Part shown: in pieces, positions 1,118 to 27,677 of the stretch | How the letters are laid out: every line of letters begins with the position of its first letter | Numbering within the stretch: the first letter of the stretch is position 1 | Translations under genes and position numbers: made by a program | Assembly (NCBI RefSeq): GCF_000283555.1 | Contig: NC_016012.1 | Location: 1,020,001-1,052,000, forward strand | Length of the DNA stretch: 32,000 nt | Direction of reading: 5' to 3' | DNA from: Candidatus Arthromitus sp. SFB-rat-Yit | GTDB lineage: Bacteria > Bacillota > Clostridia > Clostridiales > Clostridiaceae | Notes under the pieces: generated by a model | What the model saw: only the letters and a program-made list of their open reading frames with translations | Databases searched by the model: none | What the model was told of the DNA's origin: nothing

Positions 1118-3016
1118 TTATTTAGCATATCTCCTATATTTACTTAATATTTGTTGAACTTCTTGACTATCAAATATTCCCTTATAATCTACACCATCTG
1201 AACCACTTGAACCTAATGAACCCCTTCTTGAATTCTGTCCTGATCCTCCTTCATCACCTTCAGGTATTGTTGCAAGACTTGGTCTGTATCCACCATCATC
1301 TACAGTGTCAAATTCTCGATTTTGTCTGCCCTTTGGTCTTGCTCCTTCTCTTCCGTCTGAAGAAGAACCTCCCGTACTTAAACCTGAACTTGAAGAGCTT
1401 GAGCTACTAGATGATGTTGTTGTAGTCGTGCTAGAAGTAGTACTTGTAGTTGACGTAGTTTTTGAGCTTGTACCACTAGAGCTTGAAGAACTTGAAGAAC
1501 CACCTATTTTAGTAACAGTTCTTGAGCTACTCGAACTTGTTTGTGGTGATGATAATTTAGGTCCTGATAATGTTGTAGTTGTTGTTGTAGATGATTTGCT
1601 GCTGTTTTTTAAAGATTCTTCAAGTGCCTTTTGAAGATTTGGATTAGAATCATCAGGATCCAATCCAGTAGGTGGAGCAGTTTTAGGTGCTTTAGTGTCA
1701 GGATTTTTAGTTTGAGCTGTCACTTGTTTTTCAGTACCATTAGGACCCTTTAAAGTTACTGTCACAGTTCCAGGAGTCGCACTCGAACTTGAACCAGTAA
1801 CAGTCGGCGTAGGAGTAGTTTTAGTGCTAGTTGTAACTGTTGTAGTTGCTCCACTACTGGAAGATGTAGTCGTTCCTGTTGAAGTTGTAGGCGAACTACT
1901 ACTTGTCCCTGTTCCAGTAGTTGGAGTCGTTGTTAATTTAGTTGCTCCTCTAGTAGGAGTCGAAGTTGTTTGTGGAGATGACAACTTTACACCACTTAAT
2001 GTGCCAGTAGCTGAACTTGTACCACCTGGACTAGTTGTGGTACTAGTTTTTGTACCTGTAGTAGAAGTTGTAGTTGTCCCTGAAGTACTAGTCGCTGTTG
2101 TAGTTGTCACTGTCGTAGTTGTCGATGATCCAGAACTTGTACTTGGTCCACTTGACGTTGTAGTAGTTGGTGTTGACGTACTAGAGGTTGAACTACCTTG
2201 TACTTTCAACTTGTTAGCAATCTGTTGACCCTGTTGAGTAACCTTCCCATCAAATTTAACCTTGTTTTGCTCTACAAATATAATTTTATCCCCATCTTTA
2301 GTCATGAGTAAATTCAACCTAGAAACATAGGCTTTAGTGCCACTTGAGCCTCCAGATCCAATACCACCACTTCCATCAACTCCGTCTTGATTATTTCCAG
2401 CACCGCCACTTGTTGCACTTGATGAGCTTAATCTGCTACCTGAACTTCCAGAAGCAGAAGTTGATGAACTTGATCCACTAGCACTTGTGCCAGAACTTGT
2501 CCCACTACCACTACCACTAGCACCAGTACTAGAACTAGTACCACTACCTACTTTATATGCAATCCTTTTAGGGGTTCCATCACTTCCAGTATATTTTAAA
2601 ACACCATATGTACCTGGTCCCCATGTCAATTTCTCCATAGCACTTGTTGGCTCTTTAGGTAATACTTTTACTGTTCCAGAACCATTAGCTCCTTCTTCAA
2701 AAAGTAAAACTAGTGTTTTAACCTTACCACCAGATACAGTGCCACCACCTACAGTTTGTTTAACTTTAAGACCTTGATTTACATTTGCAAGACTCGAAGT
2801 GCTACTAAGTCTAGCTTTATTAACAGCACCATTAATACTATCTCCAATTCCTCTAAATGCATTCACAACTTGGGAAGCAAGAGCACTAACCCTACTTCTA
2901 AGAGCAGCTTTAGCATTCTTACCTCCAACTACACACAAAGAAGTAGCGGTAACTAAAGATAACACACAAAGTTTACCGCTATATTTTACAACTTTCCCTT
3001 TATTTTTCACATCCAT
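1118..3016 (-). CDS. Mucin-like Ser/Thr-rich secreted surface protein, paralog B (632 aa)
   Basis: Long ORF with a 37-aa signal peptide, MDVKNKGKVVKYSGKLCVLSLVTATSLCVVGGKNAKA/A. It has a short folded-looking N-terminal region and the RLNLLMTKDGDKIIFVEQ...QQIANKLKV module. Hundreds of residues of S/T/G/P low complexity follow. No LPXTG motif and no C-terminal TM segment. Confidence 0.85.
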   Translation of the reverse strand: MDVKNKGKVVKYSGKLCVLSLVTATSLCVVGGKNAKAALRSRVSALASQVVNAFRGIGDSINGAVNKARLSSTSSLANVNQGLKVKQTVGGGTVSGGKVKTLVLLFEEGANGSGTVKVLPKEPTSAMEKLTWGPGTYGVLKYTGSDGTPKRIAYKVGSGTSSSTGASGSGSGTSSGTSASGSSSSTSASGSSGSRLSSSSATSGGAGNNQDGVDGSGGIGSGGSSGTKAYVSRLNLLMTKDGDKIIFVEQNKVKFDGKVTQQGQQIANKLKVQGSSTSSTSTPTTTTSSGPSTSSGSSTTTTVTTTTATSTSGTTTTSTTGTKTSTTTSPGGTSSATGTLSGVKLSSPQTTSTPTRGATKLTTTPTTGTGTSSSSPTTSTGTTTSSSSGATTTVTTSTKTTPTPTVTGSSSSATPGTVTVTLKGPNGTEKQVTAQTKNPDTKAPKTAPPTGLDPDDSNPNLQKALEESLKNSSKSSTTTTTTLSGPKLSSPQTSSSSSRTVTKIGGSSSSSSSSGTSSKTTSTTSTTSSTTTTTSSSSSSSSSSGLSTGGSSSDGREGARPKGRQNREFDTVDDGGYRPSLATIPEGDEGGSGQNSRRGSLGSSGSDGVDYKGIFDSQEVQQILSKYRRYAK

Positions 3017-3214: not shown

Positions 3215-3905
3215 CTATCTATTAAAATATTTCGGTCTTGCACCTAGATTAGTAGTCGAATTACCTCCATTAATACCACTTACTACAGTAATAAGCATTC
3301 CCGTAGGACCAGAATCTACACTTGAAGGCATAGTTAAACTCTTTGGACCGCCATTAGTTGACGTAAACAAATCTTTATACTGACTTCCTGACCCACCTCT
3401 TGTCCAACCTCTACTAGTTAAACCACTTATTCCAGTTTGAGTATGACCCCATCCACCAAGTATAGATTTAGGTCCAGAATCTACACCTGTTACTGTGGCA
3501 CTCAAGTTTCCACCACTTCGAGTAAATCCATCATCTCTTAAAGGTTGTGGACCAAGACCAGTTCCATCATAAATGCTAGAGCCTTTACTTCCTGTCGACG
3601 ATCTTGTCCAATCAGACAAACTTGGATAACTTGGATCACCATTTTTATTTACACCTAAAATAGAATTAGGTCCTGATTGTTTCGAAAATCCTCCATCAAC
3701 TAATGTAAGACTTTTAGGTCGAATGCTAAATCTACCATTATTTACAAATAACTTGATTCCCGAAGTGAATCTAGGTCCGCTACTTGATAGCATAGCTTTA
3801 GTAGCTGACCCCCCCCGTCATAAATGACGAAACACACGCAACAACTGACAAAGCACAAAGATGACCACTATATTTTGCAAATCTTTTTCTGCTCTTTAAA
3901 CCCAT
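3215..3905 (-). pseudogene. Surface protein paralog C, frameshifted at a G8 tract (in frame with G7 or G10, giving 229 aa); phase-variable gene or pseudogene
   Basis: ATG 3905 (GGAG 8 nt upstream) encodes MGLKSRKRFAKYSGHLCALSVVACVSSFMTGG, then hits TAA three codons after the G8 run. Deleting one G joins it to the 192-aa ORF 3215..3793 through ...MTGGSATKA/MLSSSGPRF. That reproduces the 37-aa signal peptide of paralogs A and B. Confidence 0.8.
3809..3816 (-). repeat. G8 homopolymer (C8 on the + strand) inside the signal-peptide coding region
   Basis: Read directly as gacc ccccccgt at 3807..3818. It is the longest G/C run I found in the window; the next longest is C6 at 18855..18860. Confidence 0.95.
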
Positions 3906-6627: not shown

Positions 6628-7284
6628 TTATCCAACATCTTCAGAGGATTCAATAATCTTATTATCTTTATCTACTTTTTCCATCTTTGAAACTGATACT
6701 TCATATGCTATCTTTATTATTTTCTCAGTTTCAGAAATTTTCTTTTGATATTCACGACTCTGTAATCTTCCCCAAACTCTTATATTATCTCCAATTTGTA
6801 GATTTTTACAAAATCTCGAATTCCTTCCCCATGCTATAGTAGGTATGTAATCCGATTTATTGTAAGCCCTATTAACTGCTAAAAGTACATCTGCAATTTC
6901 TCTGCCAAAAGGTGTTGTCCTATAAAGTGGCTGTTTACAAATATATCCATCTAAATAAATTTCATTTGGATTTTTACTTTTTTCAGTACAAGGAGTAACA
7001 TTCCGAGCAAAAACAGTTAATATCAATTTATTTCTTCCATCTACAATTTTATTATATGATCTTAATTGACCCTCTAACATTATTTCTGTTCCTATTAAAA
7101 AATCTATTCCAACCATTATCCTCTCTGATATAGTTACACTCAAAATATCTCTCGAATCGCTTAACCGCATAACTTCTATATCAAAATTATAAAATCCCTC
7201 TCCAAACATTTCATGACTAAATTTTGGTTCATTTACTACCTTCCCTTCAAGCCATATCCTATTATTAACTAAGTTTATGTCCAT
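6628..7284 (-). CDS. SSB-like protein with two OB folds (clostridial single-stranded DNA-binding protein family)
   Basis: Start taken at ATG 7284, with GGAGAGG 6 nt upstream. Two OB-like halves are visible (LEGKVVNEPKFSHE...GQLRSYN and YLDGYICKQPLYRTTPFGREIADVLLAVNR...WGRLQSREYQKK). They resemble proteins annotated as SSB in spore-forming Clostridia. Confidence 0.6.
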   Translation of the reverse strand: MDINLVNNRIWLEGKVVNEPKFSHEMFGEGFYNFDIEVMRLSDSRDILSVTISERIMVGIDFLIGTEIMLEGQLRSYNKIVDGRNKLILTVFARNVTPCTEKSKNPNEIYLDGYICKQPLYRTTPFGREIADVLLAVNRAYNKSDYIPTIAWGRNSRFCKNLQIGDNIRVWGRLQSREYQKKISETEKIIKIAYEVSVSKMEKVDKDNKIIESSEDVG

Positions 7285-7414
7285 ACTACACCTCTCCACA
7301 TTAGTTTTTATTCTCTAATATGTATATTAGTCAGGATTTTTTTTATTACTTTGATTATATACAATACATTATAAAATTCATTAAATCATTTTTCGTATTT
7401 AATTTTATCAACAT

Positions 7415-9879: not shown

Positions 9880-9912
9880 ACACAAAAAAGGTAAGACTTA
9901 AATGTCTTACCT
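9880..9912 (-). terminator. Terminator overlapping the stop codon of 9907..11352
   Basis: The - strand reads AGGTAAGAC-ATTTTAA-GTCTTACCT followed by TTTTTTGTGT. Confidence 0.6.
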
Positions 9913-11352
9913 TTCATATACAATTTTTGCAATATCTGCTATTACTTTCTCTGCATTGCTCAAATCTTTAGTATAAATCGCCAAAATAAATGGTCTATCT
10001 CCAAAAACAATTCCCATGTCATGATAATTCCCTTGAAATGATCCATACTTGTTTGCAACAATTGCCTCTGGTATATATCTTCCTATTCTAACACCAGTTG
10101 AACTATCTTTTAAATACTGTATGATATTTTTATAATATGGGTTATTATCTTTATTTTCATATAATTTAAATAAAAACTTAGTCATATCATTTGTTGAAAA
10201 AAGGTTGCCTGTCCTATCTAATGGTGCTCCCAGAATCTTTCCATATTCTCTATAAAGACTTGTAACTTCGCTAATTCCACTTATCAACATATTAGCTGCA
10301 ATATTATCTGAATTTAGGAGAGATCTTTTAGATAATTCACTGAATGTCTGTGGAGATAAGTATTCATTTACTACATAATTTTGTAAAATTCCAGAACCAC
10401 TTTCATAGTGTTTTGAATGAATATATTCAACTCTACTATTTAAATCTATTTTACCAGCTTGTACAAGATCGTATAAAACAATATTAAGTGGAACTTTATG
10501 AGTACTTCCCGCTTTAAACAACACATCTCCATTTATACTAAATGATTCTTTTGTTGTAATATCATAAAATGTAACACCAACATTATCAACTCTATCACCC
10601 AAATAAGTTAAAATTTTATTTTTCAGCTTAGAAGATCCCAAGCTATTAATTAAATTTTTCTCAAGTTTAAGTGCCTCTTGTTTTCTTCTTTCAATCTCAT
10701 CAGTATAATCCAAAACTTTTATATCATTTTCCAAAGAATTGTATATACTCAGAGCACTTGTTCTATTTTTCGGTATATTAATATTACCTTCATCAAGTTT
10801 TATATTCATAAGAGATACCCTTATAGCAAATTCATCACTAAAAATCAATTTATTCATTACATCACTAATAACTTTTGGGGAATCATTTATATTCCATCTT
10901 AAAGTAAGAATTTCATTATCCTTATATGTTAAAGGGTACTCATCTTTGTAATAGTATAAAATTCTTTGATCTATATAGTTTGACCAATATTGTTTCCCCT
11001 GCTTGTCCGTATCCCTTCCAAATATAAATCTATAAATCTTACTTATAAACTCTTCCTTAAGTTTAACTGACTCTAAAAACTCATTAGATTCTAAAACAAA
11101 CTTCTCTATAAAAGTTTTTGCAGATGACATACCCTTACTAAGCATATTGTACCAATAGGTAAAACCATCTAAATCAGCCTCACGTCCATAAAAAATGTTA
11201 TAAGCTGAACCAATAAAATTTCCTAATAGCTTGTCTGACGTTTGAGTTACAACCATATTCGTCTTAGAAGATACTTCTGTAACTTTATACAAAAAAGAAC
11301 ATATTATTAAAATTAAAAACAACGCTGAAAAACATTTGGAAATTCTTTTCAT
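9907..11352 (-). CDS. Exported class-A beta-lactamase-like serine hydrolase with an N-terminal tandem DUF4214 pair
   Basis: Signal peptide MKRISKCFSALFLILIICSF. Two DUF4214-type units are present (YGREADLDGFTYWYNML and FGRDTDKQGKQYWSNYI). The catalytic motifs are S-T-H-K (SxxK), S-D-N and K-Y-G (a KTG-like motif). Confidence 0.8.
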   Translation of the reverse strand: MKRISKCFSALFLILIICSFLYKVTEVSSKTNMVVTQTSDKLLGNFIGSAYNIFYGREADLDGFTYWYNMLSKGMSSAKTFIEKFVLESNEFLESVKLKEEFISKIYRFIFGRDTDKQGKQYWSNYIDQRILYYYKDEYPLTYKDNEILTLRWNINDSPKVISDVMNKLIFSDEFAIRVSLMNIKLDEGNINIPKNRTSALSIYNSLENDIKVLDYTDEIERRKQEALKLEKNLINSLGSSKLKNKILTYLGDRVDNVGVTFYDITTKESFSINGDVLFKAGSTHKVPLNIVLYDLVQAGKIDLNSRVEYIHSKHYESGSGILQNYVVNEYLSPQTFSELSKRSLLNSDNIAANMLISGISEVTSLYREYGKILGAPLDRTGNLFSTNDMTKFLFKLYENKDNNPYYKNIIQYLKDSSTGVRIGRYIPEAIVANKYGSFQGNYHDMGIVFGDRPFILAIYTKDLSNAEKVIADIAKIVYER

Positions 11353-17765: not shown

Positions 17766-18851
17766 TTAAATTTTCAATCCTAGTTCATTCATCAATCTTA
17801 CATATTCTTCACAAATTAACATCTGTTTTAAAACATCTTGGCGTGATGTCCTTTTAACTTCACTAACCCAATATTTCTTACCATCCTCATCTGGGTCACG
17901 ATTCAGTATAACTCTATAAACTCTGTTTATAAACTCACCATTAGACATTAATTTATTTTGAAATTCAATGCCCTCAACGATATTTACAATCAATGTACTT
18001 GGTGACAATGTTTTATTGATTAATGCTTGTACATTATTTTTCAACTCCGTAGTAGTTGGATTTCTTTTCAGTAAACTACTATAAATGTTCATTACAAATT
18101 CTTCTATAATATCCTTGGTACTAAAATTATATAGAAATGTTTTATTAATTTTTTTAATGGAAACACCATCCAATTCATTTTGAAATAACAAACTTAAGTT
18201 AAATTTTAAAGGCTGATCAGACGGAAATCCATCAAGATATATGTACACGTATTGTTTAAGTTCTTCAGATACCACAACATATTTTATTTCAAAAGTCGTA
18301 CTAGAATTGGTCACTAACTCTGGATACACAAGTACAGATTGTACACTTTTAAGCATATCCCAAGGGTCATCTATTTCAACCGCTAAAACTATTTGATTTT
18401 GGTTATAATATAGGAGTCTTGGCTCTCCAATAACACTCGAAGATCTAAAATTTTCATTTTTGGCACTTAACGTTGCAATTTCTTTTATACTCTCTTGTGA
18501 CCTATTTACAACGAAATTCACACCTAATTTTACATTATCCATATCATAAGATTTTGTATTTTGGTTAATAATTATAATGTATTTATTTTCAGAAATCTGA
18601 TATGTACTAACAGGCGTAATCTTATTATCAACTTCGATGAAGAACTCTTTAATAACTCCATCTACTTTTTTCTCAACATCCACACTAAATATAAATCTAT
18701 TTTTACCAGATAACTCTTCTAGAAACTTAGTCTTAACAATAACATCCTTGCTATCAATTGCATTTGCTTTTGTTCCACAAACTAGAGCAAATAGTACTAC
18801 GAACATAGACATAAATAAAGTAAATAATTTATGTTTACATTTAAACAACAA
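17766..18851 (-). CDS. Secreted protein with a C-terminal tandem DUF4214 pair
   Basis: Signal peptide ...FVVLFALVCGTKANA/IDSKD. The C-terminus is FVMNIYSSLLKRNPTTTE...RVYRVILNRDPDEDGKKYWVSEV...EEYVRLMNELGLKI, homologous to the C-terminus of the 1471-aa protein. TTG start after a G6 RBS. Confidence 0.75.
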   Translation of the reverse strand: MLFKCKHKLFTLFMSMFVVLFALVCGTKANAIDSKDVIVKTKFLEELSGKNRFIFSVDVEKKVDGVIKEFFIEVDNKITPVSTYQISENKYIIIINQNTKSYDMDNVKLGVNFVVNRSQESIKEIATLSAKNENFRSSSVIGEPRLLYYNQNQIVLAVEIDDPWDMLKSVQSVLVYPELVTNSSTTFEIKYVVVSEELKQYVYIYLDGFPSDQPLKFNLSLLFQNELDGVSIKKINKTFLYNFSTKDIIEEFVMNIYSSLLKRNPTTTELKNNVQALINKTLSPSTLIVNIVEGIEFQNKLMSNGEFINRVYRVILNRDPDEDGKKYWVSEVKRTSRQDVLKQMLICEEYVRLMNELGLKI

Positions 18852-18980
18852 ATTCCCCCCATTTACTTATTGATTTATTACAATTATATAACATTTGTGA
18901 CAATTTTTCTATAAATAATTTACAAATCAATTATTAATTATAAACCTTATATATACTTTAATTAATTTATTAAAATTGTA

Positions 18981-19009
18981 TTGAAATTTAAGAATGCTTC
19001 CGATATAAT
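18981..19009 (+). promoter_or_regulatory. Consensus sigma-A promoter of the rubrerythrin gene
   Basis: TTGAAA (18981..18986), an exactly 17-nt spacer, then TATAAT (19004..19009). Confidence 0.7.
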
Positions 19010-19022
19010 AATAATTGTTAAT

Positions 19023-19037
19023 TGATAATTATTAACT
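19023..19037 (+). promoter_or_regulatory. Fur-family (PerR/Fur-like) 7-1-7 operator candidate
   Basis: TGATAAT-T-ATTAACT lies just downstream of the -10. It matches 12 of 14 positions of TGATAATnATTATCA and 10 of 14 of the PerR box TTATAATnATTATAA. AT-rich background lowers the significance. Confidence 0.4.
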
Positions 19038-19077
19038 TATTTTTGAATAATTATTTTATATTTTGGAGGTTTTTGTA

Positions 19078-19620
19078 ATGAAAAAATTTGTTTGTACAAT
19101 ATGTGGATACATAGCTGAGGGGTCTGCTCCAGAGGTTTGTCCTATCTGTAAAGCACCAGCTGATAAATTTAATGAGCAAACTGGGGATATGACTTGGGCA
19201 GATGACCATGTAATTGGTGTTGCTAAAGATGTTGATCCTAGAATTATAGAAGGATTAAGAATGAATTTTGAAGCTGAGTGTACAGAAGTTGGAATGTATC
19301 TAGCAATGTCCAGACAAGCTGATAGAGAAGGTTTCCCAGAAGTTGCTGAAGCTTATAAAAGAATAGCTATAGAAGAAGCTGAGCATGCTTCTAAGTTCGC
19401 TGAGCTTTTAGGAGAAGTTGTTGACAACTCTACTAAAATTAACTTAGAGAAAAGAGTTGCTGCTGAGTATGGAGCTTGTCAAGGTAAAAAAGATTTAGCT
19501 ACATTAGCTAAACAATTAAACTTAGATGCTATTCATGACACAGTTCATGAAATGTGTAAAGATGAAGCTAGACACGGAAGAGCATTCAAAGGTCTTCTTG
19601 AGAGATACTTCAAAGCTTAA
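19078..19620 (+). CDS. rbr: Reverse rubrerythrin (N-terminal rubredoxin-like domain plus C-terminal diiron four-helix bundle)
   Basis: [27 protein letters not shown] carries CxxC...CxxC. Diiron ligand motifs follow ([28 protein letters not shown]). ATG 19078 lies after GGAGG 19065..19069. Confidence 0.92.
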
Positions 19621-19630
19621 TTTATATTTA

Positions 19631-19669
19631 GAACTCATTGATTTATTCAATGGGTTCTTTTGTTTTTTG
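19631..19669 (+). terminator. Rubrerythrin terminator
   Basis: GAACTCATTG-ATTTATT-CAATGGGTTC (one G-U pair in the stem) followed by TTTTGTTTTTTG. Confidence 0.75.
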
Positions 19670-19807
19670 TTCTCTCCCTTACTAATAATTTCTTTGTTAA
19701 ATTTTATGTGATATGTATATTAAGTTTTAAAATTTCATTTCGATATAAATTCATATATATCAACTTAAAATTGTTTGAAATTTATTACTCTTATGGGAGA
19801 AATCAAT

Positions 19808-20731
19808 ATGAAAAATTCGGAAAATAAAATTAAAAAGCAAAATGATTCGAGAGCATTTGCTTATAAGGCAATCTCACTTGCCTCTTTATCTACTCTAGCA
19901 CTAACCCTAGGATTAAATAACTTCAAAGAAGCCAAGGCTTTACTTACAAGAACAGGAACTACAAAATTCTTTGGATCAAATGGTTCTAAAGTTATGCTTC
20001 CGGGTAATATGGGATCTACTGGAAATACAGGATACGGTATTAAATCAGCAGTTACTGGTGGGGCTACAAAAGTTACTGGCGGAGCTCTTACAAGTGGTAG
20101 CAAAGGATTTGCAAACTTCAATAAAAAATGCCATAATCCATTTACTCAACCATACCTAGATTCTGTTAGACCATCTAACACTAGTAACGTAGGATCCTCT
20201 AATAAAAATACTTCTACAAAATCTCCTACTACTAGCGGAACTAATGGTACATCTAAACTTCCTACTACTGGATCAGGCTCAACACTTGGTTCAAATAAAA
20301 CTCCTTCTATAGGAAGTTCATCATCTAGTTCATCTTCATCTTTATCATCTTCATTAAGTAGAAATCCTTCTACAAGTAGTTCATCTTCTACTAGTTCATC
20401 TACATCATCTACGTTAAGTAGACCTTCTACAAGTGGATCAGTAGGTGTATATGAAAATCCTACAGATACTAACAACAATACTAATGGTAATAAAAATAAA
20501 CTTACTCCTAAACAAAAAGCTGGATTAGTTGCAGCAGGTAGTTTAGGTTTCTTAGGAGTACTTGCTGCTATTGGTGTAGGTGTTGGTGCTGCTCAAAATA
20601 GTAACAACAATAAGTCAGATTCAAACGGTACTAAAGGACCTGAGTCTGTAGCTACTCCAAAAACTCCAGAAAACACAAATAAAGTAGTTAACTCTGCCGC
20701 AGGTAACTATTACACAGATACAAAAGCGTAA
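19808..20731 (+). CDS. Ser-rich bitopic surface protein (signal peptide, Ser/Thr/Gly stalk, glycine-zipper TM near the C-terminus)
   Basis: ATG 19808 lies after GGGAGA. Signal peptide MKNSENKIKKQNDSRAFAYKAISLASLSTLALTLGLNNFKEAKA/LLTR. Poly-Ser tracts are present. The TM segment is GLVAAGSLGFLGVLAAIGVGVGAA, followed by a tail of about 50 aa. Confidence 0.75.
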   Translation: MKNSENKIKKQNDSRAFAYKAISLASLSTLALTLGLNNFKEAKALLTRTGTTKFFGSNGSKVMLPGNMGSTGNTGYGIKSAVTGGATKVTGGALTSGSKGFANFNKKCHNPFTQPYLDSVRPSNTSNVGSSNKNTSTKSPTTSGTNGTSKLPTTGSGSTLGSNKTPSIGSSSSSSSSSLSSSLSRNPSTSSSSSTSSSTSSTLSRPSTSGSVGVYENPTDTNNNTNGNKNKLTPKQKAGLVAAGSLGFLGVLAAIGVGVGAAQNSNNNKSDSNGTKGPESVATPKTPENTNKVVNSAAGNYYTDTKA

Positions 20732-20769
20732 TTACTTAACAATTCTCTTTTAAGGTAAGGGTGATTATT

Positions 20770-21093
20770 ATGAATAACTCAAACAAAAATAATACTAAAG
20801 ATATCACTAAGAAAGCCGTAGCTATTGGAACTGCACTCGGTGTAGTTGCAACCCTCGGAGCAAACCTAAATGTTAAAGAAGCTGGAGCTCGCACTCGTAA
20901 CACTAAACCAAATAAAGAATCTAGAGTAAACTCAGACAAGAAATTTTCGTACACTAAAAGACCTTGGACAAATGTAGATAAAGCAAATGCTCAAAGTTCA
21001 GAAGGATACGCAGCAAAAAATAAAGAAGAACGAAAAACTTCTAGTAATAGAAAAATAAGAGTTCCTGTTAGCGTTTCGACTGCAAGAAGATAG
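20770..21093 (+). CDS. Small basic exported protein, family member P1 (107 aa)
   Basis: MNNSNKNNTKDITKKAVAIGTALGVVATLGANLNVKEAGA/RTRN..., ending RVPVSVSTARR. It starts 38 nt after the upstream stop with no hairpin between, so it is probably co-transcribed. Confidence 0.7.
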   Translation: MNNSNKNNTKDITKKAVAIGTALGVVATLGANLNVKEAGARTRNTKPNKESRVNSDKKFSYTKRPWTNVDKANAQSSEGYAAKNKEERKTSSNRKIRVPVSVSTARR

Positions 21094-21102
21094 TTTATAT
21101 AA

Positions 21103-21139
21103 GGGGATACCTCTTCGAGGTTTCCCTATTTTCTTTTTT
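21103..21139 (+). terminator. Terminator after P1 (part of the 730-bp repeat unit)
   Basis: GGGGATACCTC-TTC-GAGGTTTCCCT (one T-T mismatch) followed by ATTTTCTTTTTT. Confidence 0.6.
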
Positions 21140-21268
21140 GTCAATTAATTTTAAATTTTTTTGCAACTTAAATATAAATTTTCCTTTTACCTCACCGAAA
21201 TATATGATTGTAAAGCTTATAACAAAAATTTTTATAGGATTGTTTTTCAAACAAGGAGGTATTTTATA

Positions 21269-21823
21269 ATGAGTAATTCATCTAAAAAAAATAATAAGAA
21301 AGATATCGCTAAAAAGGCTGTAGCCCTTGGTGCTGCTCTTGGTGTTGTTGCTGGTATCGGTGCTACTATGGGTGGTGGTGCTGAAGAAGCTCATGCTGCT
21401 AGAAGACCTTCCCAATCTTCTACTACAACTACTAACTCTGAACAAAGTACAACTACTACTAAAAGACCTTCTTCTAACGCTTCATCTGCAAATACTACAG
21501 GAACTTCTTCTAGAACTACAAGAAGTTCAGCTAACAGAAAAGTTTCTGCTAAGGTAGCTGATGCTAAAACTACTACAGATACTACTACAGAGGATACAAC
21601 AACTAGTACAAGTACTGGAAGAAGATCTACTACTTCAACTTCAAGTACTGGAAGAACTACAACTAACAAACAAGAAGATGCTAAGAAGTCTACTTCTCAC
21701 TCTTCTGTAAGTTCTAAAAGGTCTAAGTCTAAAGCTCAACAAAATAAAGATATGGCTTCAAGGTCTTCATCAACTGAGAAAACAAATAAAGTCGTTGTTA
21801 GCGTTTCAACTGCAAGAAAGTAG
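21269..21823 (+). CDS. Small basic Ser/Thr-rich exported protein, family member P2 (184 aa)
   Basis: ATG 21269 lies after AAGGAGG. MSNSSKKNNKKDIAKKAVALGAALGVVAGIGATMGGGAEEAHA/ARRP..., ending KVVVSVSTARK. The ORF-track extension back to 21161 has no RBS support. Confidence 0.8.
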   Translation: MSNSSKKNNKKDIAKKAVALGAALGVVAGIGATMGGGAEEAHAARRPSQSSTTTTNSEQSTTTTKRPSSNASSANTTGTSSRTTRSSANRKVSAKVADAKTTTDTTTEDTTTSTSTGRRSTTSTSSTGRTTTNKQEDAKKSTSHSSVSSKRSKSKAQQNKDMASRSSSTEKTNKVVVSVSTARK

Positions 21824-21832
21824 TTTATATAA

Positions 21833-21869
21833 GGGGATACCTCTTCGAGGTTTCCCTATTTTCTTTTTT
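21833..21869 (+). terminator. Terminator after P2 (copy of 21103..21139)
   Basis: The sequence is identical to 21103..21139 at offset 730. Confidence 0.6.
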
Positions 21870-21998
21870 GTCAATTAATTTTAAATTTTTTTGCAACTTA
21901 AATATAAATTTTCCTTTTACCTCACCGAAATATATGATTGTAAAGCTTATAACAAAAATTTTTATAGGATTGTTTTTCAAACAAGGAGGTATTTTATA

Positions 21999-22553
21999 AT
22001 GAGTAATTCATCTAAAAAAAATAATAAGAAAGATATCGCTAAAAAGGCTGTAGCCCTTGGTGCTGCTCTTGGTGTTGTTGCTGGTATCGGTGCTACTATG
22101 GGTGGTGGTGCTGAAGAAGCTCATGCTGCTAGAAGACCTTCCCAATCTTCTACTACAACTACTAACTCTGAACAAAGTACAACTACTACTAAAAGACCTT
22201 CTTCTAACGCTTCATCTGCAAATACTACAGGAACTTCTTCTAGAACTACAAGAAGTTCAGCTAACAGAAAGGTTTCTGCTAAGGTAGCTGATGCTAAAAC
22301 TACTACAGATACTACTACAGAAGAGGCAACAACTAGTACAAGTACTGGAAGAAGATCTACTACTTCAACTTCAAGTACTGGAAGAACTACAACTAACAAA
22401 CAAGAAGATGCTAAGAAGTCTACTTCTCACTCTTCTGTAAGTTCTAAAAGGTCTAAGTCTAAAGCTCAACAAAATAAAGATATGGCTTCAAGGTCTTCAT
22501 CAACTGAGAAAACAAATAAAGTCGTTGTTAGCGTTTCAACTGCAAGAAAATAA
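21999..22553 (+). CDS. Small basic Ser/Thr-rich exported protein, family member P3 (184 aa, duplicate of P2)
   Basis: It differs from P2 by two residues (TEDTT versus TEEAT) and has the same RBS and start context. Confidence 0.8.
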   Translation: MSNSSKKNNKKDIAKKAVALGAALGVVAGIGATMGGGAEEAHAARRPSQSSTTTTNSEQSTTTTKRPSSNASSANTTGTSSRTTRSSANRKVSAKVADAKTTTDTTTEEATTSTSTGRRSTTSTSSTGRTTTNKQEDAKKSTSHSSVSSKRSKSKAQQNKDMASRSSSTEKTNKVVVSVSTARK

Positions 22554-22559
22554 TTTAAT

Positions 22560-22581
22560 GGACACTGAAAAGTGTCCTTTT
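22560..22581 (+). terminator. Terminator after P3
   Basis: GGACACT-GAAA-AGTGTCC followed by TTTT. Confidence 0.65.
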
Positions 22582-22625
22582 AATATAATGTAACGGATTT
22601 TCTAAACATGGAGGTGTATTTAGAA

Positions 22626-23174
22626 GTGTCTAATAAAAAGAATAAAAAAGAAATAGCTAAAAAGGCTGTTGCCTTAGGTGCTGCTCTTGGAGTTGTCGCT
22701 GGTATAGGTGCTAGCATAGGGGGAGGAGCTGAAGAGGCTCATGCTGCTAGTAGAACATCCCAAACAAGATCAACCAGAAATACAAACACTTCAACTTCTA
22801 CATCAAAAAGACCAACATCAAATGCTAAGACAAGCGTATCAAAAGAAAATAGTGAAACAGAAAGCAAATCAAACCAAAACTCTAGAAATTATAGAAGCAA
22901 ATTAAGCTCAACTTCAAGGAGTGGTAGTGAAGACGAATCTTCAAATAGAAGAAGAAGTAAAGCTAAAGTAATATCAAATTCTAATGCTGAAGTTGAGAAT
23001 GAACAAAATGATGAAAATACTACATCAAAAAGACCTACCCCTAAATCATATAAAAGTATAGATGATAAGAAACAAAACTCAAAAGCAATAGTCGATGGGA
23101 GTAGATCATCTGCATCAACAGATGAAAGTTCATCAGGCAATAAAATTATAGTCAGAATATCAACAAAGAAATAA
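22626..23174 (+). CDS. Small basic exported protein, family member P4 (182 aa)
   Basis: A GTG start at 22626, 11 nt after GGAGG (22610..22614), gives (M)SNKKNKKEIAKKAVALGAALGVVAGIGASIGGGAEEAHA/ASRT, which is collinear with P1 to P3. The protein ends KIIVRISTKK. Confidence 0.7.
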   Translation: MSNKKNKKEIAKKAVALGAALGVVAGIGASIGGGAEEAHAASRTSQTRSTRNTNTSTSTSKRPTSNAKTSVSKENSETESKSNQNSRNYRSKLSSTSRSGSEDESSNRRRSKAKVISNSNAEVENEQNDENTTSKRPTPKSYKSIDDKKQNSKAIVDGSRSSASTDESSSGNKIIVRISTKK

Positions 23175-23182
23175 TGTTTAAA

Positions 23183-23220
23183 AACAGCATTCTTATTTAT
23201 AGGTTTGCTGTTTATTTTTA
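23183..23220 (+). terminator. Possible terminator after P4
   Basis: AACAGCA/TGCTGTT forms a 7-bp stem with a 16-nt loop, followed by TATTTTTAT. Confidence 0.45.
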
Positions 23221-23221
23221 T

Positions 23222-23256
23222 ACAAAAACTAAAATGGAGAAGCATTAAGCTTCTCC
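23222..23256 (-). terminator. Terminator of the 1471-aa protein gene
   Basis: GGAGAAGC/GCTTCTCC forms an 8-bp stem with a 5-nt loop, followed by ATTTTAGTTTTTG on the - strand. Confidence 0.7.
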
Positions 23257-23261
23257 AAAAA

Positions 23262-26200
23262 TTAATATTTTAATCCCATTCCAACTACCATTTTCATAAA
23301 TTCTTCTTCATTAATCATTCTATCCACCACGTGTTTCTTTGCATTAAATACATCTCCATTTGCATTTACAAGTGATTCATTGTTGTAAAAATCTATCCAG
23401 AATCTCAAACCTTCCTCATCCGGATCTCTATCAACAACTATAGAATAAAGTATTTCAATTAATTTATCTGTGGTATATTCAAGTTCTGAAAACTCTTTTT
23501 CCGCAAACAATAAATTAATCAAAAAATCTCTTGCTCCTATATCTTGATTATTTAATCTATTAATCCAATAATCATAACCAAGTTCGTCAGGGGCTCTTAA
23601 GAATGCTCTATCATACACATTGTATAAAAATGATTGCCTAGGATTCTCAGCTTCGAGGATTATATTTTGTATATTAAATATAATCTCCTTCCCTTCTTCT
23701 ACTACAATTCTAACCTCTATTGAAGGATATTCCTTACCTGGCACAAGTCCTTCAACTCCAATATTTCCATCTTCATTAATTCGAGCAGATATTCCATCTA
23801 TATCACATAATATATCCATCTCTTCTGTCAAACTTATATCTCCGAGATCAGGAATAGGAAATGCAAATTGATTACCTATTCCATCAAATCTTTCAATTTC
23901 AACAGGTTGCTCAAAAATTGTTTCATCTACAGGTTCATTCTTAATAATTTTCTCAACATAAAATTCTGTTTTGCCTGCACCTATTGTAAATTTCTCTGTA
24001 ACAGGTTCTATCATAACAATATAATCTGTATCATCAGTTAAAAATTGATCTAAATTAAAACTTGTAACTGAAATTATATCTGATTCAATAGTATGAATTT
24101 TTACATATTCATCCCCAATTACAATATCAGATTCTTTCTTTTCGTTTGAGGAATCCTCATTTTCTTCACCCTGTTCTGCCTTTTTAACTGTCTTCAAATA
24201 AATGTTTAACTTATCTCCTTCTAAAAACTTTGTATTCTCTCCATAAGACCACTTAAGATCAAACGTACTTTTAGTAAATTCATCTTCATATTTCTCGCCC
24301 TCTTCAACAGTTGGCTTAATTCCTCTATACTCAAGTTCAAAATCTACAAAATAAACTTCATTAAAATATCCATGTGGATTGTAAGAAATCAACAAATCAT
24401 AATCTTTTGTATTATCTGGAATCGTACACTCAAAATCAAATATTTCATTACGACTACCACTAAATATAGAATCACTATTATACTGTTTATGATCTGCCAA
24501 TTTATAGAAAGTATCAACATATATATCTAAATAATCCATAACCACCATATCATTACCAAAATCAGTTTTTATTCTAAGTGTGTTACCTTTCATGGAATCT
24601 ATCCTACAATTACTAAATTCTAATTTCTTTGTTCTAAACTGCATTGTTTTATCTTCAATATCATTTGCTTTCGTTTTATACGTAAGAAGAACATCATAAT
24701 CCATATCTGGCAATACAGGAAGTATATTAAATTTCGTTAAATCTTCTAACTTATTACTCTCACCATGGAATGAAATTATATTAGGTTCTTTAGGATACTT
24801 ATTATCACTTCGCTTCTTTACATATATTTCTACATAATCTCCATTTGCAAATATATAATCTTGTGGAGCTGCAATATTTAAAATTGCATAATACTCTGTC
24901 GTACTTTCTAATTTTATAGACGCATCTGCATGCGTTGTTTTAAATTCCACAGTCTTTTCAAATTTAACATTACTTATTGTGTAAACAAGCTTAGCTGTAT
25001 AATCCATATCCATATAAGTTACAGTCCCATCACCTTTAAACACTCCGCTAACCTCAGAACCAACTTTTGAAAATGAAGATCCTGCAGGATATCCATTAAC
25101 AATCTTTCTTTTAATATAAATCTCAACTTTATCTTTCTCATCAAAAGTCGTAGGTTCTCCAGATACTTTCCACTCAAAACTTACACTATTTGGTCTAATT
25201 GACGTTGTTTTAAATTCATCTATAGTAAATGAGCTAGTTTTCTGATTTTCAAATGTCTTTTCTAAAGTTTTTCTTTCTTCTGTATTTCTAACACTATATT
25301 TTTTATTAGAGCTTGAAGGTTCTTCTTCTGTTTCCTCTGTTTTTCCTGTTTCTTCAGATGAACCTCCACCTTCTACTGTTCCAGTATTTCCACTATCTTC
25401 TGAACCTTCTGTTCCAGTAGACACATCTTCACTATCTTCTGTTTCTTCTTCATCACCTTCTTCCTCTTCACTGCTGCTATCATCAGATCCTTCACCATTT
25501 TCTTGATTGTCATCACCATTTGAACCATTTCCGTCAGATAAATCTCCATTGCTTCCCGAATCTTCTCCACCTGATTCTGTTCCTCCTCCAGTCGAACCAC
25601 CTCCAGTATCAGATCCGCTTCCAGATCCTCCACTACTACCGTCACCACTTCCAGATTCAATTATAGTATCTTTATCCTTTAGCTCATTTTTTGTCTTAAA
25701 CTCAATCTTAAAATCATATTCTTTCTCTGGAATTAGGTATCCAATGCTCACCTCTTTTATATTTTTCAAATCAATTTGGTTTTCTCCATTACTAGCATGG
25801 ATGTACTCTTTATCAGGCTCACTAGAAAAATTCTTTGCAGAACCATTTCTAAGTTTTTTAAATAATCTTATACTGTCACCTTCTTCAAACGTAAAATCTT
25901 CAGAATACTCAAGCTGAAATATAACTTCATTAACTTTTTTATCTTTAATAGAAACTTTTACCGTATTATTTTGATTGTTAGCTTCCCCAGTATTATTTGT
26001 TTCACCGTTTGAATATGATGTACCTTCAGATTGTGTTCTAACAAGTGCATTATTTTTTAAATCACCATAGCTTACATATTCTTTTCCATCTATATCATAA
26101 ACAAATTTAAAATCATATTCTTTGTTTATATCTCTCCCCAAATTTAAAATACAAGATCCCAATCTGCTTAAATCTCTATTTGCATAAAATTGCGAATCAT

Positions 26201-27677
26201 TTGGATATTCCGAATCATTCTTTTCTTTAATAAAAACTTTTAATGAATCATTACTCCCAAATCTAAAATTAGGCTCAGTTATTTCCCATCTAAGTTTAAC
26301 ATTTAAATTTCCATCACTATCAACTATAGGCTTGGCACTAATATTTTTAATTTCAAATGGAAGAGTTCTGAAAGTTTCATTTTTAATTATCAAAGATTCA
26401 TCATATGAATTTAAAATTTCATAATCAATACTATATTCTGTATTCGTTTTCAAATTTTTATAATCAACACTATTTCCCTGAATTTGATCTTTTAAATCTA
26501 TAGACCTAACTTTCTTTCTGGATAATTTATCATCCTTCTCCTCAATATAAATGTTTAACCTATCCCCGGATTTAAAATTTAAATTTTTAATGAAATCAAA
26601 TTGTATAAATAAATCTCTTAAATTTTTTATCTTAATATCCGTATTAAGATTATAACAATCATTAGTCTGACCTATCTCTTTTTCAATAACTCCATCTCCA
26701 AACTTATAAGCAAGCTTTATATCATAAATAGGGGATAATTCTTTTAATTCAATAACAGTTGAGTTAACCTTTTCATCATTTATTCTAATATCTGGATCAA
26801 CTGAATAATTTATATCACCCTTACCTTTGATATAAATATTAATTGAATCATTATTGATAAATTTAAAATTATTTGATGTGACATCCCATTTTAATTCAAG
26901 CTGATTATTATTAATCATTTTTGAACTCATATCCAAAATATCAAAATCTTTAGTCTTTATATGCTTATCAAATACTAAATTAACATTATCCTTTAAATTA
27001 ATGACATATCTGATATCATATGTGGTAGATGGATGTAACGAAATATTATTAAACTTAAAAATATTTCTGAGATTATTTATTTCCTTCTTTGATTTCTTTA
27101 TATGAAAGTCAAATCTATCTTCTTTACCTTCATCTCCAAATTTTTTACCATAAAGCTCAATTCCATTTATAAAAATCAGATTCTTTTTATCATATTTAAA
27201 CATAACATCACAAGTATTAATTCCAATATTATTAACGTCAAAACTATTGTTTAAATATTTAAACTTCGAAACTTGATTAATTGTTTTAAATGATGATCTA
27301 TCAATTAATGAAATTTTTATCTCATACCCAGTACCATCTTCTAACTTGTCATATATAAAAAATCGTTTATCAATTTCATTAATTTTAATTTCATTTCCAG
27401 AAATCAAATCTTTTAAACTAACTTTATTAATTTCATATCCAAATGCATCATCTACTACAATTTCAACAAAATTTCCACTCTCAACTATGTAAATAGGAAC
27501 ATCTATTTTATCCAGTGTATAACTTACTTTAATGCATAAATTCAAACACAATATTACAAAAAAAACAAACCTAATCATCATTTTAAATAAACTCTTCACA
27601 CAAACTAACCCCCTACCGAATTTATTAAAAGCATAGATATTAGTTTTAAAAATTTTTAATAATTTATTCATATTCAC
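23262..27677 (-). CDS. Giant exported repeat protein: about 8 Fn3-like repeats, an acidic G/S/D/E spacer and a C-terminal tandem DUF4214 pair
   Basis: The longest ORF is 1471 aa. The probable real start is GTG 27599, 9 nt after AGGGGG, giving MKSLFKMMIRFVFFVILCLNLCIKV. Repeats of about 100 aa are delimited by F-[KR]-T and carry [LF]x[WF]...F..GD.[IL].[IV]Y[IV]K and a tyrosine-corner-like YD[FIVL]x[LIF]xY. The C-terminus is YDRAFLRAPDELGYDYWINRL...VVDRDPDEEGLRFWIDF. Confidence 0.85.
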   Translation of the reverse strand: MNMNKLLKIFKTNIYAFNKFGRGLVCVKSLFKMMIRFVFFVILCLNLCIKVSYTLDKIDVPIYIVESGNFVEIVVDDAFGYEINKVSLKDLISGNEIKINEIDKRFFIYDKLEDGTGYEIKISLIDRSSFKTINQVSKFKYLNNSFDVNNIGINTCDVMFKYDKKNLIFINGIELYGKKFGDEGKEDRFDFHIKKSKKEINNLRNIFKFNNISLHPSTTYDIRYVINLKDNVNLVFDKHIKTKDFDILDMSSKMINNNQLELKWDVTSNNFKFINNDSINIYIKGKGDINYSVDPDIRINDEKVNSTVIELKELSPIYDIKLAYKFGDGVIEKEIGQTNDCYNLNTDIKIKNLRDLFIQFDFIKNLNFKSGDRLNIYIEEKDDKLSRKKVRSIDLKDQIQGNSVDYKNLKTNTEYSIDYEILNSYDESLIIKNETFRTLPFEIKNISAKPIVDSDGNLNVKLRWEITEPNFRFGSNDSLKVFIKEKNDSEYPNDSQFYANRDLSRLGSCILNLGRDINKEYDFKFVYDIDGKEYVSYGDLKNNALVRTQSEGTSYSNGETNNTGEANNQNNTVKVSIKDKKVNEVIFQLEYSEDFTFEEGDSIRLFKKLRNGSAKNFSSEPDKEYIHASNGENQIDLKNIKEVSIGYLIPEKEYDFKIEFKTKNELKDKDTIIESGSGDGSSGGSGSGSDTGGGSTGGGTESGGEDSGSNGDLSDGNGSNGDDNQENGEGSDDSSSEEEEGDEEETEDSEDVSTGTEGSEDSGNTGTVEGGGSSEETGKTEETEEEPSSSNKKYSVRNTEERKTLEKTFENQKTSSFTIDEFKTTSIRPNSVSFEWKVSGEPTTFDEKDKVEIYIKRKIVNGYPAGSSFSKVGSEVSGVFKGDGTVTYMDMDYTAKLVYTISNVKFEKTVEFKTTHADASIKLESTTEYYAILNIAAPQDYIFANGDYVEIYVKKRSDNKYPKEPNIISFHGESNKLEDLTKFNILPVLPDMDYDVLLTYKTKANDIEDKTMQFRTKKLEFSNCRIDSMKGNTLRIKTDFGNDMVVMDYLDIYVDTFYKLADHKQYNSDSIFSGSRNEIFDFECTIPDNTKDYDLLISYNPHGYFNEVYFVDFELEYRGIKPTVEEGEKYEDEFTKSTFDLKWSYGENTKFLEGDKLNIYLKTVKKAEQGEENEDSSNEKKESDIVIGDEYVKIHTIESDIISVTSFNLDQFLTDDTDYIVMIEPVTEKFTIGAGKTEFYVEKIIKNEPVDETIFEQPVEIERFDGIGNQFAFPIPDLGDISLTEEMDILCDIDGISARINEDGNIGVEGLVPGKEYPSIEVRIVVEEGKEIIFNIQNIILEAENPRQSFLYNVYDRAFLRAPDELGYDYWINRLNNQDIGARDFLINLLFAEKEFSELEYTTDKLIEILYSIVVDRDPDEEGLRFWIDFYNNESLVNANGDVFNAKKHVVDRMINEEEFMKMVVGMGLKY

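Follow-up and report, generated by a model that had tools for sequence, protein, structure and literature searches.

Segmented filamentous bacteria (SFB) are epithelium-attached gut symbionts and model commensals for the induction of intestinal T helper 17 (Th17) and immunoglobulin A responses. We analyzed a 32,000-nt stretch of the chromosome of Candidatus Arthromitus sp. SFB-rat-Yit (contig NC_016012.1, positions 1,020,001 to 1,052,000; hereafter the window, in whose own numbering positions are given) that carries five plus-strand genes, here termed P0 to P4, between a rubrerythrin-like gene and the gene of a giant repeat protein. A first-pass annotation, made from the letters and their open reading frames (ORFs), had regarded them as one cluster of exported, disordered proteins rich in Ser, Thr and basic residues, and as a candidate uncharacterized envelope or host-interface system. 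All five ORFs are present:

19808-20731 (+), P0: 307 aa, Ser/Thr-rich; conserved ORF.
20770-21093 (+), P1: 107 aa, short member of the P family; conserved ORF.
21269-21823 (+), P2: 184 aa; predicted signal peptide aa 1-43 (AHA/A); mature part with net charge +17 and 49% S+T.
21999-22553 (+), P3: 184 aa; tandem duplicate of P2.
22626-23174 (+), P4: 182 aa; GTG start; second KRP motif (SKRPTPKSYKSIDDKK).

Exact sequence matches identify P0 as BAK81475.1 and P1 as BAK81476.1, the upstream rubrerythrin-like gene as BAK81474.1 and the valyl-tRNA synthetase (ValRS) gene as BAK81468.1. P0–P4 are real, constrained genes, as seen from their Shine-Dalgarno sequences, terminators, conserved orthologues and ratios of nonsynonymous to synonymous substitution rates (dN/dS) below 1. 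Each of the five is preceded by a Shine-Dalgarno sequence, which reads AAGGAGG for P2 and P3. The start of P4 is the GTG at 22626; an ATG at 22608 (18 nt upstream) falls inside the GGAGGTG Shine-Dalgarno. A GTG start is also called for the P4 orthologue of the closest relative, the rat-type strain L010, and mouse SFB has an ATG at the aligned position.

We considered whether these genes might be an artefact, that is, low-complexity ORFs that are not expressed. Low-complexity DNA does yield ORFs in several frames, and exact look-ups in a protein collection found neither P2–P4 nor mouse P0, P2 and P4. However, the same frame, termini and motifs are kept in all lineages, dN/dS lies below 1, the Shine-Dalgarno sequences and terminators are strong, and mouse SFB records annotate the genes. 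Conservation effectively refutes this reading, to which we assign a probability close to nil.

The P1–P4 family and its relation to P0

With a P-family profile, a word-indexed search across 5.8 billion proteins returned 10 proteins, and a HMMER profile search of 1.84 billion cluster representatives gave 15 matches at E <=0.001, all of them SFB-like. Scanning one genome per GTDB species yielded four loci, namely two contig ends of a metagenome-assembled genome (MAG) of an uncultured Candidatus Arthromitus, Candidatus Dwaynia gallinarum, and one Clostridiales MAG. Viral contigs contained no P-family relatives, and a phage origin was rejected on this ground. Sequence searches of P0–P4 against Pfam, NCBIfam, PHROG and PDB returned nothing significant. 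The family had not been recognized at first sight, and the profile searches proposed at that stage have now found relatives in the SFB lineage only and no characterized family. Judged by these searches, P1–P4 are an orphan family restricted to the SFB lineage.

The family set comprises 28 collected members in three orthogroups: short P1-like proteins (95-130 aa), P2-like proteins (165-186 aa) and P4-like proteins (164-211 aa). P1–P4 can be aligned along a K-rich N-terminus, a hydrophobic G/A/V/L stretch, an (A/V/T)-x-A site, a [ST][KR]RPx[ST]N motif (KRP motif) and a C-terminal tail. The N-terminus, cleavage site, KRP motif and tail, all described earlier for the four genes, recur in 28 of 28 members; a second KRP motif is usual in P4-like members and absent from one of them (P0036). 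When the window and four related loci were scanned in all six frames, the N-terminal and KRP patterns matched P-family genes only, and the C-terminal pattern was likewise confined to them, missing one short member in L004. The N-terminal pattern is therefore not a general trait of the organism's secreted proteins, a possibility that the first-pass annotation had itself raised; the signal peptides of neighbouring secreted proteins are quite different. Two metagenome predictions, P0009 and P0042, are chimeric or frameshifted (family N-terminus with unrelated GC-rich sequence; unrelated N-terminus with a P2 C-terminus) and are unfit for defining the family.

Read by rule, the conserved N-terminus is a Sec-type signal peptide with a K-rich n-region, an h-region of about 21-22 G/A/V/L residues, A/V/T at position -3, A at -1 and a variable -2. 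The site was taken as the first after the h-region; an automated pick landed further downstream for a few members. The charged n-region, hydrophobic h-region and small -3/-1 residues agree with the export claimed earlier and predict cleavage by signal peptidase I (SPase I), with basic residues at +1 to +3. Arg or Lys stands directly after the predicted site in most members (A/R, A/K).

The mature parts of P1–P4 have isoelectric points (pI) of 10.3-11.4 and net charges of +13 to +17. Ser and Thr make up 22-49% of their residues and S/T/N/K/R together 61-72%, so that the enrichment noted earlier holds while the wording that they consist almost only of these residues does not. Aligning both long orthogroups revealed four short motifs, [ST][KR]RPx[ST]N, R[KR]xxxK[VI], S[HY]xS[VI]xxKKxxSK and [KR][VI][VI][VI]x[VI]STx(0-2)K-COOH, separated by variable S/T/N/E-rich spacers. 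The C-terminus is a strand-like motif ending in Lys in all 28 members except rat-Yit P1, which ends RR. AlphaFold2 with the family alignment gave P4 a mean predicted local distance difference test score (pLDDT) of 49.8, with no residue at 70 or above and helices only in the N-terminal segment and residues 145-158; P0 likewise had no residue at 70 or above (mean pLDDT 39.8). The lack of any confident structure bears out the earlier claim of disorder, and the mature part of the P family may be pictured as a disordered polycationic chain bearing several short docking motifs. The description as conserved termini around fast-evolving middles stands as a pattern, but the middles are not featureless, given their conserved short motifs, and the pattern has already been reported for the major SFB antigen P3340, in which a conserved signal and C-terminus enclose a variable middle (PMC7474095).

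P0 proved different. Its 23 homologues, all SFB-like, share an invariant N-terminal signal-like segment, KAISLASLSTLALTL, with an AxA-type site (AKA in rat P0), and just after this site a short conserved motif with the consensus KF[FY]GSNGS[RK]V. A disordered, Ser/Thr/Gly-rich middle follows, highly variable among homologues and with large insertions and deletions, and then a C-terminal transmembrane helix (about aa 236-262) and the conserved tail PPxLVPVPxxPxYSxxVVNSxxGNLFTD (in rat P0, VVNSxxGNxxTD). When the P-family and P0-family profiles were compared with hhalign, only the transmembrane helix matched, with a probability of 13%. P0 as a P-family member or fusion was rejected on these grounds, and the view of a single five-member family falls with it. 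By sequence comparison, P0 is a distinct family, compositionally similar to P1–P4 and not homologous to them.

These observations also bear on a membrane-tethered alternative, in which the N-terminus of P1–P4 would be an uncleaved type II signal anchor whose glycine-zipper face packs helices against each other or against the C-terminal helix of P0, leaving the basic tail at the membrane-wall interface. The h-region is long enough to span the membrane and carries a GxxxGxxxG pattern, conservation is higher at the N-terminus than in the mature part, the AxA site is immediately followed by basic residues, and the transmembrane helix of P0 is the sole, weak profile match to the P family. However, strict adherence to the -3/-1 rule together with a variable -2, as read in the members inspected, would be expected of a cleavage site in use, and an hhalign probability of 13% establishes no relationship between P0 and the P family. 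We consider this alternative rather unlikely.

Known anchors and export types gave no match either. LPXTG, the mark of sortase anchoring, is absent from P0–P4, and no Cys lies in or near their signal peptides that could form a lipobox, which upholds the earlier statement that no known anchor is present. The Pfam scan places DUF4214 (PF13946) in the neighbours at 17766-18851 and 23262-27677 and in none of P0–P4. The YSIRK-G/S motif is absent, the sole match being lipase_YSIRK_Sa (E 0.04-0.12, 11-12 bits vs a cut-off of 650). For serine-rich repeat proteins of the accessory Sec route there was no NCBIfam or Pfam match, and the 32-kb window holds no secA2, secY2 or gtf genes; glycosyltransferase and L,D-transpeptidase genes are likewise absent from the window. 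Proteins of the GspB/Fap1 accessory-Sec and YSIRK types resemble P1–P4 in being Ser/Thr-rich and exported and in the unusual conservation of a signal peptide that contains glycine; in the GspB/Fap1 and YSIRK types, this peptide directs a special export route or site. Unlike them, P1–P4 lack KxYKxGKxW, YSIRK, SX dipeptide repeat domains and LPXTG.

Gene order, transcription signals and rates of evolution

Every readable locus has the same gene order: M16 peptidase, a 361-aa DUF4214 protein (-), rubrerythrin, P0, P-family genes, the DUF4214 giant (-) and SBP_bac_5 (-). This synteny spans rat, mouse, chicken-type and other SFB-lineage genomes, and the surroundings are ordinary chromosome genes (ValRS, LigA, PcrA, DapH, RecX, M16 peptidase). 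The P0–P4 locus is therefore core and not an accessory island, contrary to the accessory-looking location first suggested: it is a lineage-specific yet core, syntenic chromosome locus. Transcription signals within it comprise the following predicted elements:

21103-21139 (+): intrinsic terminator after P1; 25-nt hairpin, -14.7 kcal/mol, z-score -2.85, then a U-tract.
21833-21869 (+): intrinsic terminator after P2; -14.7 kcal/mol, identical to the post-P1 terminator.
22560-22585 (+): intrinsic terminator after P3; GGACACU-GAAA-AGUGUCC then a U-tract, -11.4 kcal/mol, z-score -4.1.
23175-23224 (+): probable terminator after P4; hairpin of -12.9 kcal/mol, z-score -3.4, then a U-rich tract.
19721-19746 (+): sigma-D/sigma-28-like promoter candidate before P0; TAAG-N16-CGATAT, a consensus match only.
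21175-21201 (+): sigma-D/sigma-28-like promoter candidate before P2; TAAA-N17-CGAAAT.
21905-21931 (+): promoter candidate before P3; duplicate copy of the P2 candidate, TAAA-N17-CGAAAT.

Since a hairpin with a U-tract follows each of P1–P4 and the 38-nt gap between P0 and P1 holds no hairpin, the likely transcription units are [P0-P1], [P2], [P3] and [P4]. The hairpin after P1 is kept in rat-type and mouse loci. We found nothing to show the five genes acting together, and the designation as a system is accordingly not borne out.

The candidate promoters follow the general form TAA[AG]-N16/17-CGA[TAC]A[TA], 55-90 nt upstream of P0, P2 and P3, in upstream regions that included those of L013, L002, L004 and L007. 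For comparison, the sigma-D/sigma-28 consensus reads TAAA-N15-GCCGATAT, or alternatively TAAAGTTT-N11-GCCGATAA. The block before P0 is kept in the rat-type L010 and the mouse L013, and Dwaynia has a related TAAG-N17-CGATAA. Before P2, TAAA and CGAnAT are kept in mouse, L001 and Dwaynia, whose P2 genes read GTAAAGTTT-N11-TTCGACAT, and aligned regions upstream of P4 show TAAG-N17-CGATAT or CGATAA in three lineages. Three of the five matches to the sigma-D-like motif in the whole window fall exactly in the promoter regions of the cluster. This hints, as an idea only, that intracellular offspring might express the cluster along with their flagella. For P2, a sigma-A promoter was dropped, as no conserved -35 element was found, and an Rfam scan of 18800-23400 gave only a chance sub-threshold small nucleolar RNA match and no regulatory RNA.

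The promoter candidates touch on a further reading, in which P1–P4 would form a developmental matrix or coat of offspring or spores, secreted between the mother-cell and offspring membranes and comparable to CotG. The CotG type of Bacillus is a basic protein of the mother-cell cytoplasm with tandem Ser/Lys/Arg repeats and no signal peptide. The composition of P1–P4 resembles it, SFB form offspring and spores within filament segments, and a shielded compartment would protect trypsin-sensitive chains. Yet P1–P4 carry a signal peptide that CotG types lack, they show no internal tandem arrays beyond weak 38-nt similarities, repetition being limited to gene duplication, their promoter candidates are sigma-D-like instead of matching a sporulation sigma factor, and the P0 orthologue is apparently presented to host T cells. 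We regard this reading as highly improbable.

We determined dN/dS for two pairs, rat-Yit with the close rat-type strain L010 and rat with mouse SFB:

Rubrerythrin: dN/dS vs L010 0.05; rat-mouse identity 96%; rat-mouse dN/dS 0.04.
P0: dN/dS vs L010 0.87 (mature part 0.96); rat-mouse identity 54%; rat-mouse dN/dS 0.58.
P1: dN/dS vs L010 0.22; rat-mouse identity 65%; rat-mouse dN/dS 0.46.
P2: dN/dS vs L010 0.52; rat-mouse identity 80%; rat-mouse dN/dS 0.26.
P4: dN/dS vs L010 0.31; rat-mouse identity 66%; rat-mouse dN/dS 0.27.
DUF4214 giant: dN/dS vs L010 0.23; rat-mouse identity 69%; rat-mouse dN/dS 0.26.

RecX, ValRS and the M16 peptidase show 87-94% rat-mouse identity and dN/dS of 0.04-0.12, so that P0–P4 evolve faster than their housekeeping neighbours, as had been supposed. 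Within P0, P1, P2 and P4 the signal regions are more constrained (dN/dS 0.10-0.22, and 0.10-0.19 for the P-family members) than the mature parts (0.30-0.71). In the flanking DUF4214 protein the relation is reversed, with 0.53 for the signal and 0.18 for the rest.

The duplication suspected earlier is a 730-bp tandem unit that yields P2 and P3, whose proteins are 99% identical. A comparison between strains, also proposed at the outset, showed that P2 copy number differs: P2 is duplicated in mouse-Yit (704-bp unit, 99.4% identity), in another mouse-type contig (100%) and in Dwaynia, and single-copy in the rat-type L010 and the mouse-type metagenome contig L015. The near-identity of the P2 copies within each genome therefore indicates recurrent duplication or gene conversion. 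In several metagenome and MAG contigs (L001/L003, L005, L006 and L007) the contig end lies within the tandem array of P2; assemblies from short reads thus split the locus and under-count copies.

Around the cluster, the Pfam scan identified three secreted DUF4214-domain proteins in the window, one of which carries a fused beta-lactamase-like domain. They and the remaining features of interest are:

9907-11352 (-): secreted DUF4214-domain protein.
17766-18851 (-): secreted DUF4214-domain protein, 361 aa.
23262-27677 (-): DUF4214 giant, a 1471-aa secreted repeat protein with C-terminal DUF4214 and a polyacidic linker; convergent neighbour of P4 outside the P family.
1118-3016 (-) and 3215-3793 (-): ORFs of 632 and 192 aa with no Pfam match.
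6628-7299 (-): 223 aa, with a single-stranded DNA-binding (SSB) domain confined to residues 112-200 and either an N-terminal extension of about 110 residues or a mis-called start.

The mouse counterpart of P0

Rat P0 is the positional orthologue of mouse P0, lying between rubrerythrin and P1. The mouse-SFB orthologue (AP012209, locus L013, 10886-10918) reads ...TKGGTIRWFGSSVQKVIQPGNM... and contains the 11-mer IRWFGSSVQKV, which also occurs in L014. A second SFB Th17 antigen with the epitope IRWFGSSVQKV, SFBNYU_004990, was reportedly described by Yang et al. in 2014. Accession numbering agrees: EGX28481.1 is SFBNYU_005010 (the 361-aa DUF4214 protein), EGX28480.1 is rubrerythrin and EGX28478.1 is P1. 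EGX28479.1 sits between the rubrerythrin and P1 entries, and mouse P0 should therefore be EGX28479.1, or SFBNYU_004990. A look-up of mouse P0 gave no NYU name, and literature text searches for IRWFGSSVQKV and 004990 returned nothing useful. According to a review (PMC7027583), Yang et al. identified two proteins that are putatively secreted or surface-located; the tag printed there for the second is 004940, which, set against the 004990 expected from the EGX28478-28481 numbering, is probably a misprint in the review.

Rat P0 is thus, by the reported epitope and accession numbering, apparently the counterpart of a published mouse T-cell antigen. A T-cell epitope in the mouse orthologue would argue that P0 is expressed in vivo and exposed to the host. 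The claim that the locus is uncharacterized accordingly holds for P1–P4 and apparently fails for P0. The likeness to SFBNYU_004990 applies to P0 only, the epitope is not conserved in rat, and antigenicity is silent on bacterial function. The rat counterpart of the 11-mer, TKFFGSNGSKV, shares 5 of 11 positions with IRWFGSSVQKV, which overlaps the single conserved motif of the P0 ectodomain. The 11-mer also varies among mouse-type SFB, reading IRWFGSSTYKV in L015 (a JGI metagenome contig), and such polymorphism of the reported epitope may be relevant to tetramer-based tracking. Neither the CD8 epitope SGLIYVTL nor that of P3340 occurs in the P0–P4 locus.

Possible roles at the SFB surface

Published work offers a frame for these proteins. 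SFB have no sortase, and about 14 of their surface proteins are seemingly held by a DUF4214-type C-terminal motif, while for high-pI secreted proteins without an anchor, charge has been proposed as the means by which they return to the surface (PMC7474095). DUF4214 is the proposed wall-anchoring motif of the surface antigens P3340 (Th17/B-cell) and SFBNYU_003240 (CD8). These two and the giant and 361-aa neighbours have organism and neighbourhood in common with P0–P4, along with conserved ends around a variable middle; unlike them, P0–P4 have no DUF4214 domain or predicted fold and are basic where the giant is strongly acidic. An SFB-specific "Cluster.4, hypothetical proteins" is listed by Pamp 2012.

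The explanation we favour, at somewhat less than an even chance, is that P1–P4 are exported, cleaved and held on the anionic envelope by charge and short motifs, that P0 is a membrane-tethered stalk, and that both undergo host-driven diversification. P0 would be exported by Sec and tethered by its C-terminal transmembrane helix, with its disordered, mucin-like Ser/Thr-rich stalk outside the cell. P1–P4 would be exported by Sec through their unusually conserved glycine-rich signal peptide and cut by SPase I at the conserved (A/V/T)-x-A. We infer that the released polycationic disordered chains (net charge given as +5 to +25) would stay on the cell non-covalently, the likely binding targets being polymers of the teichoic-acid type or acidic proteins of the wall, for instance the DUF4214 giant next to the cluster, and that the four short conserved motifs would provide specific multivalent docking. 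The giant has a net charge of -94 overall and -37 over aa 668-787, and its polyacidic linker is conserved, carrying between -23 and -37 per 120 residues across five lineages. Transcription would probably start from sigma-D-type promoters together with the flagellar genes. Such timing would assign P0–P4 to the intracellular offspring, at the stage when these swim to the ileal epithelium and attach to it, and host or immune pressure would account for the fast-evolving spacers and copy-number changes.

By analogy, P1–P4 may be functionally closest to basic, anchorless proteins that re-bind the surface of Gram-positive bacteria, and the cationic secreted adhesins of staphylococci are among such charge-retained proteins. 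Another is Lactobacillus fermentum BspA (cited for SFB in PMC7474095), which like P1–P4 combines a signal peptide with a very high pI and the absence of a covalent anchor, and for which charge retention has been proposed. These proteins, however, are folded, BspA being a homologue of solute-binding proteins, whereas P1–P4 are disordered, lack homologues beyond SFB and carry short motifs of their own.

Several points weigh against this explanation. Charge complementarity between P1–P4 and the acidic giant is circumstantial. The sigma-D-like motif is not enriched in the window (5 found vs 3.7 expected). Arg or Lys right after a cleavage site impairs Sec export in E. coli, so that the N-terminus might be an uncleaved anchor, and in the ileal lumen trypsin would readily attack a disordered chain so rich in K and R unless shielding or glycosylation protected it. 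The link of P0 to a Th17 antigen is presumptive, and the review prints another tag, 004940. A phage-display screen recovered four SFB B-cell antigens, none from the P0–P4 locus (Verma preprint), and we met no report of P1–P4 expression, localization or processing in the accessible literature.

Instead of staying on the cell, P1–P4 could be released as host-directed factors that bind mucins, the glycocalyx or heparan sulfate, or that enter enterocytes via the endocytic vesicles of the attachment site, with KRP acting as a short linear motif resembling a nuclear localization signal. SFB are known to pass surface antigens to enterocytes (PMC7027583; PMC7474095), the P family is confined to this attached symbiont, its mature regions evolve fast at variable copy number, and the P0 orthologue is apparently recognized by host T cells. 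Nevertheless, the resemblance to a nuclear localization signal is weak, and P1, P2 and P4 orthologues with the same motifs in rodent- and chicken-type lineages fit a bacterial partner better. We judge release to be unlikely.

A different proposal is that the proteins are building blocks of a structured layer on the outside of the cell, namely the hair-like layer of the filament or the hairs at the offspring tip, possibly O-glycosylated on Ser/Thr and fixed to the wall through the C-terminal strand plus Lys. The intracellular offspring of SFB are flagellated, and cryo-electron tomography has shown hair-like surface layers of unknown composition in rat and mouse SFB; early offspring stages bear a surface layer (S-layer) together with tip-restricted, disordered hair-like structures thought to mediate attachment (PMC12780176). 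The P proteins are S/T-rich and extended, all members bar rat-Yit P1 end in the strand-like motif with Lys, and an organism without sortase needs another anchoring route. The Braun lipoprotein Lpp offers a precedent, being a small exported protein with a conserved C-terminal Lys that L,D-transpeptidases join to peptidoglycan, a sortase-free anchoring. Lpp, however, is a helical lipoprotein of diderms, whereas the P family has no lipobox or helix, the organism is Gram-positive, and rat P1 ends in Arg-Arg. Moreover, the hair-like layer of SFB forms a regular 5-nm lattice, which fully disordered chains of 60-160 residues could hardly build; the multi-domain DUF4214 giant would be a more natural candidate, and the genes expected for glycosylation or Lys linkage are missing from the window, as noted above. 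We hold this proposal to be quite unlikely.

Its most specific version, which we rate as very unlikely, has P0 and P1–P4 together build the SFB hair-like structures, be they offspring-tip fibres or the filament layer, as part of the sigma-D regulon and with sortase-free anchoring by the C-terminal strand-Lys. Anchoring would then involve, for example, an L,D-transpeptidase that joins the terminal Lys to peptidoglycan, or insertion of the strand into a DUF4214 wall protein. If true, P0–P4 would be direct players in host attachment and in the hand-over of antigen to the epithelium.

Returning to surface retention by charge and motifs, the resemblance to secreted effector or surface-coat families perceived in the first-pass annotation agrees with the predicted signal peptides, the disorder, the fast evolution and the epithelium-attached life of the organism, whereas the surface role itself is only inferred from these sequence traits. 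The findings are partly known and partly new: P0 as an antigen (apparently) and the general notion of secreted SFB proteins with a high pI precede this work, while the P1–P4 family, its motifs, synteny and copy-number variation and its possible flagellar-stage regulation are new.

SFB are not genetically manipulable. The locus occurs in every SFB-lineage genome examined and is absent elsewhere, and thus provides a short candidate list for antibody localization and binding studies. It also offers two possible targeting or anchoring signals, an ultra-conserved signal peptide and a C-terminal strand-Lys motif, in an organism that has no sortase.

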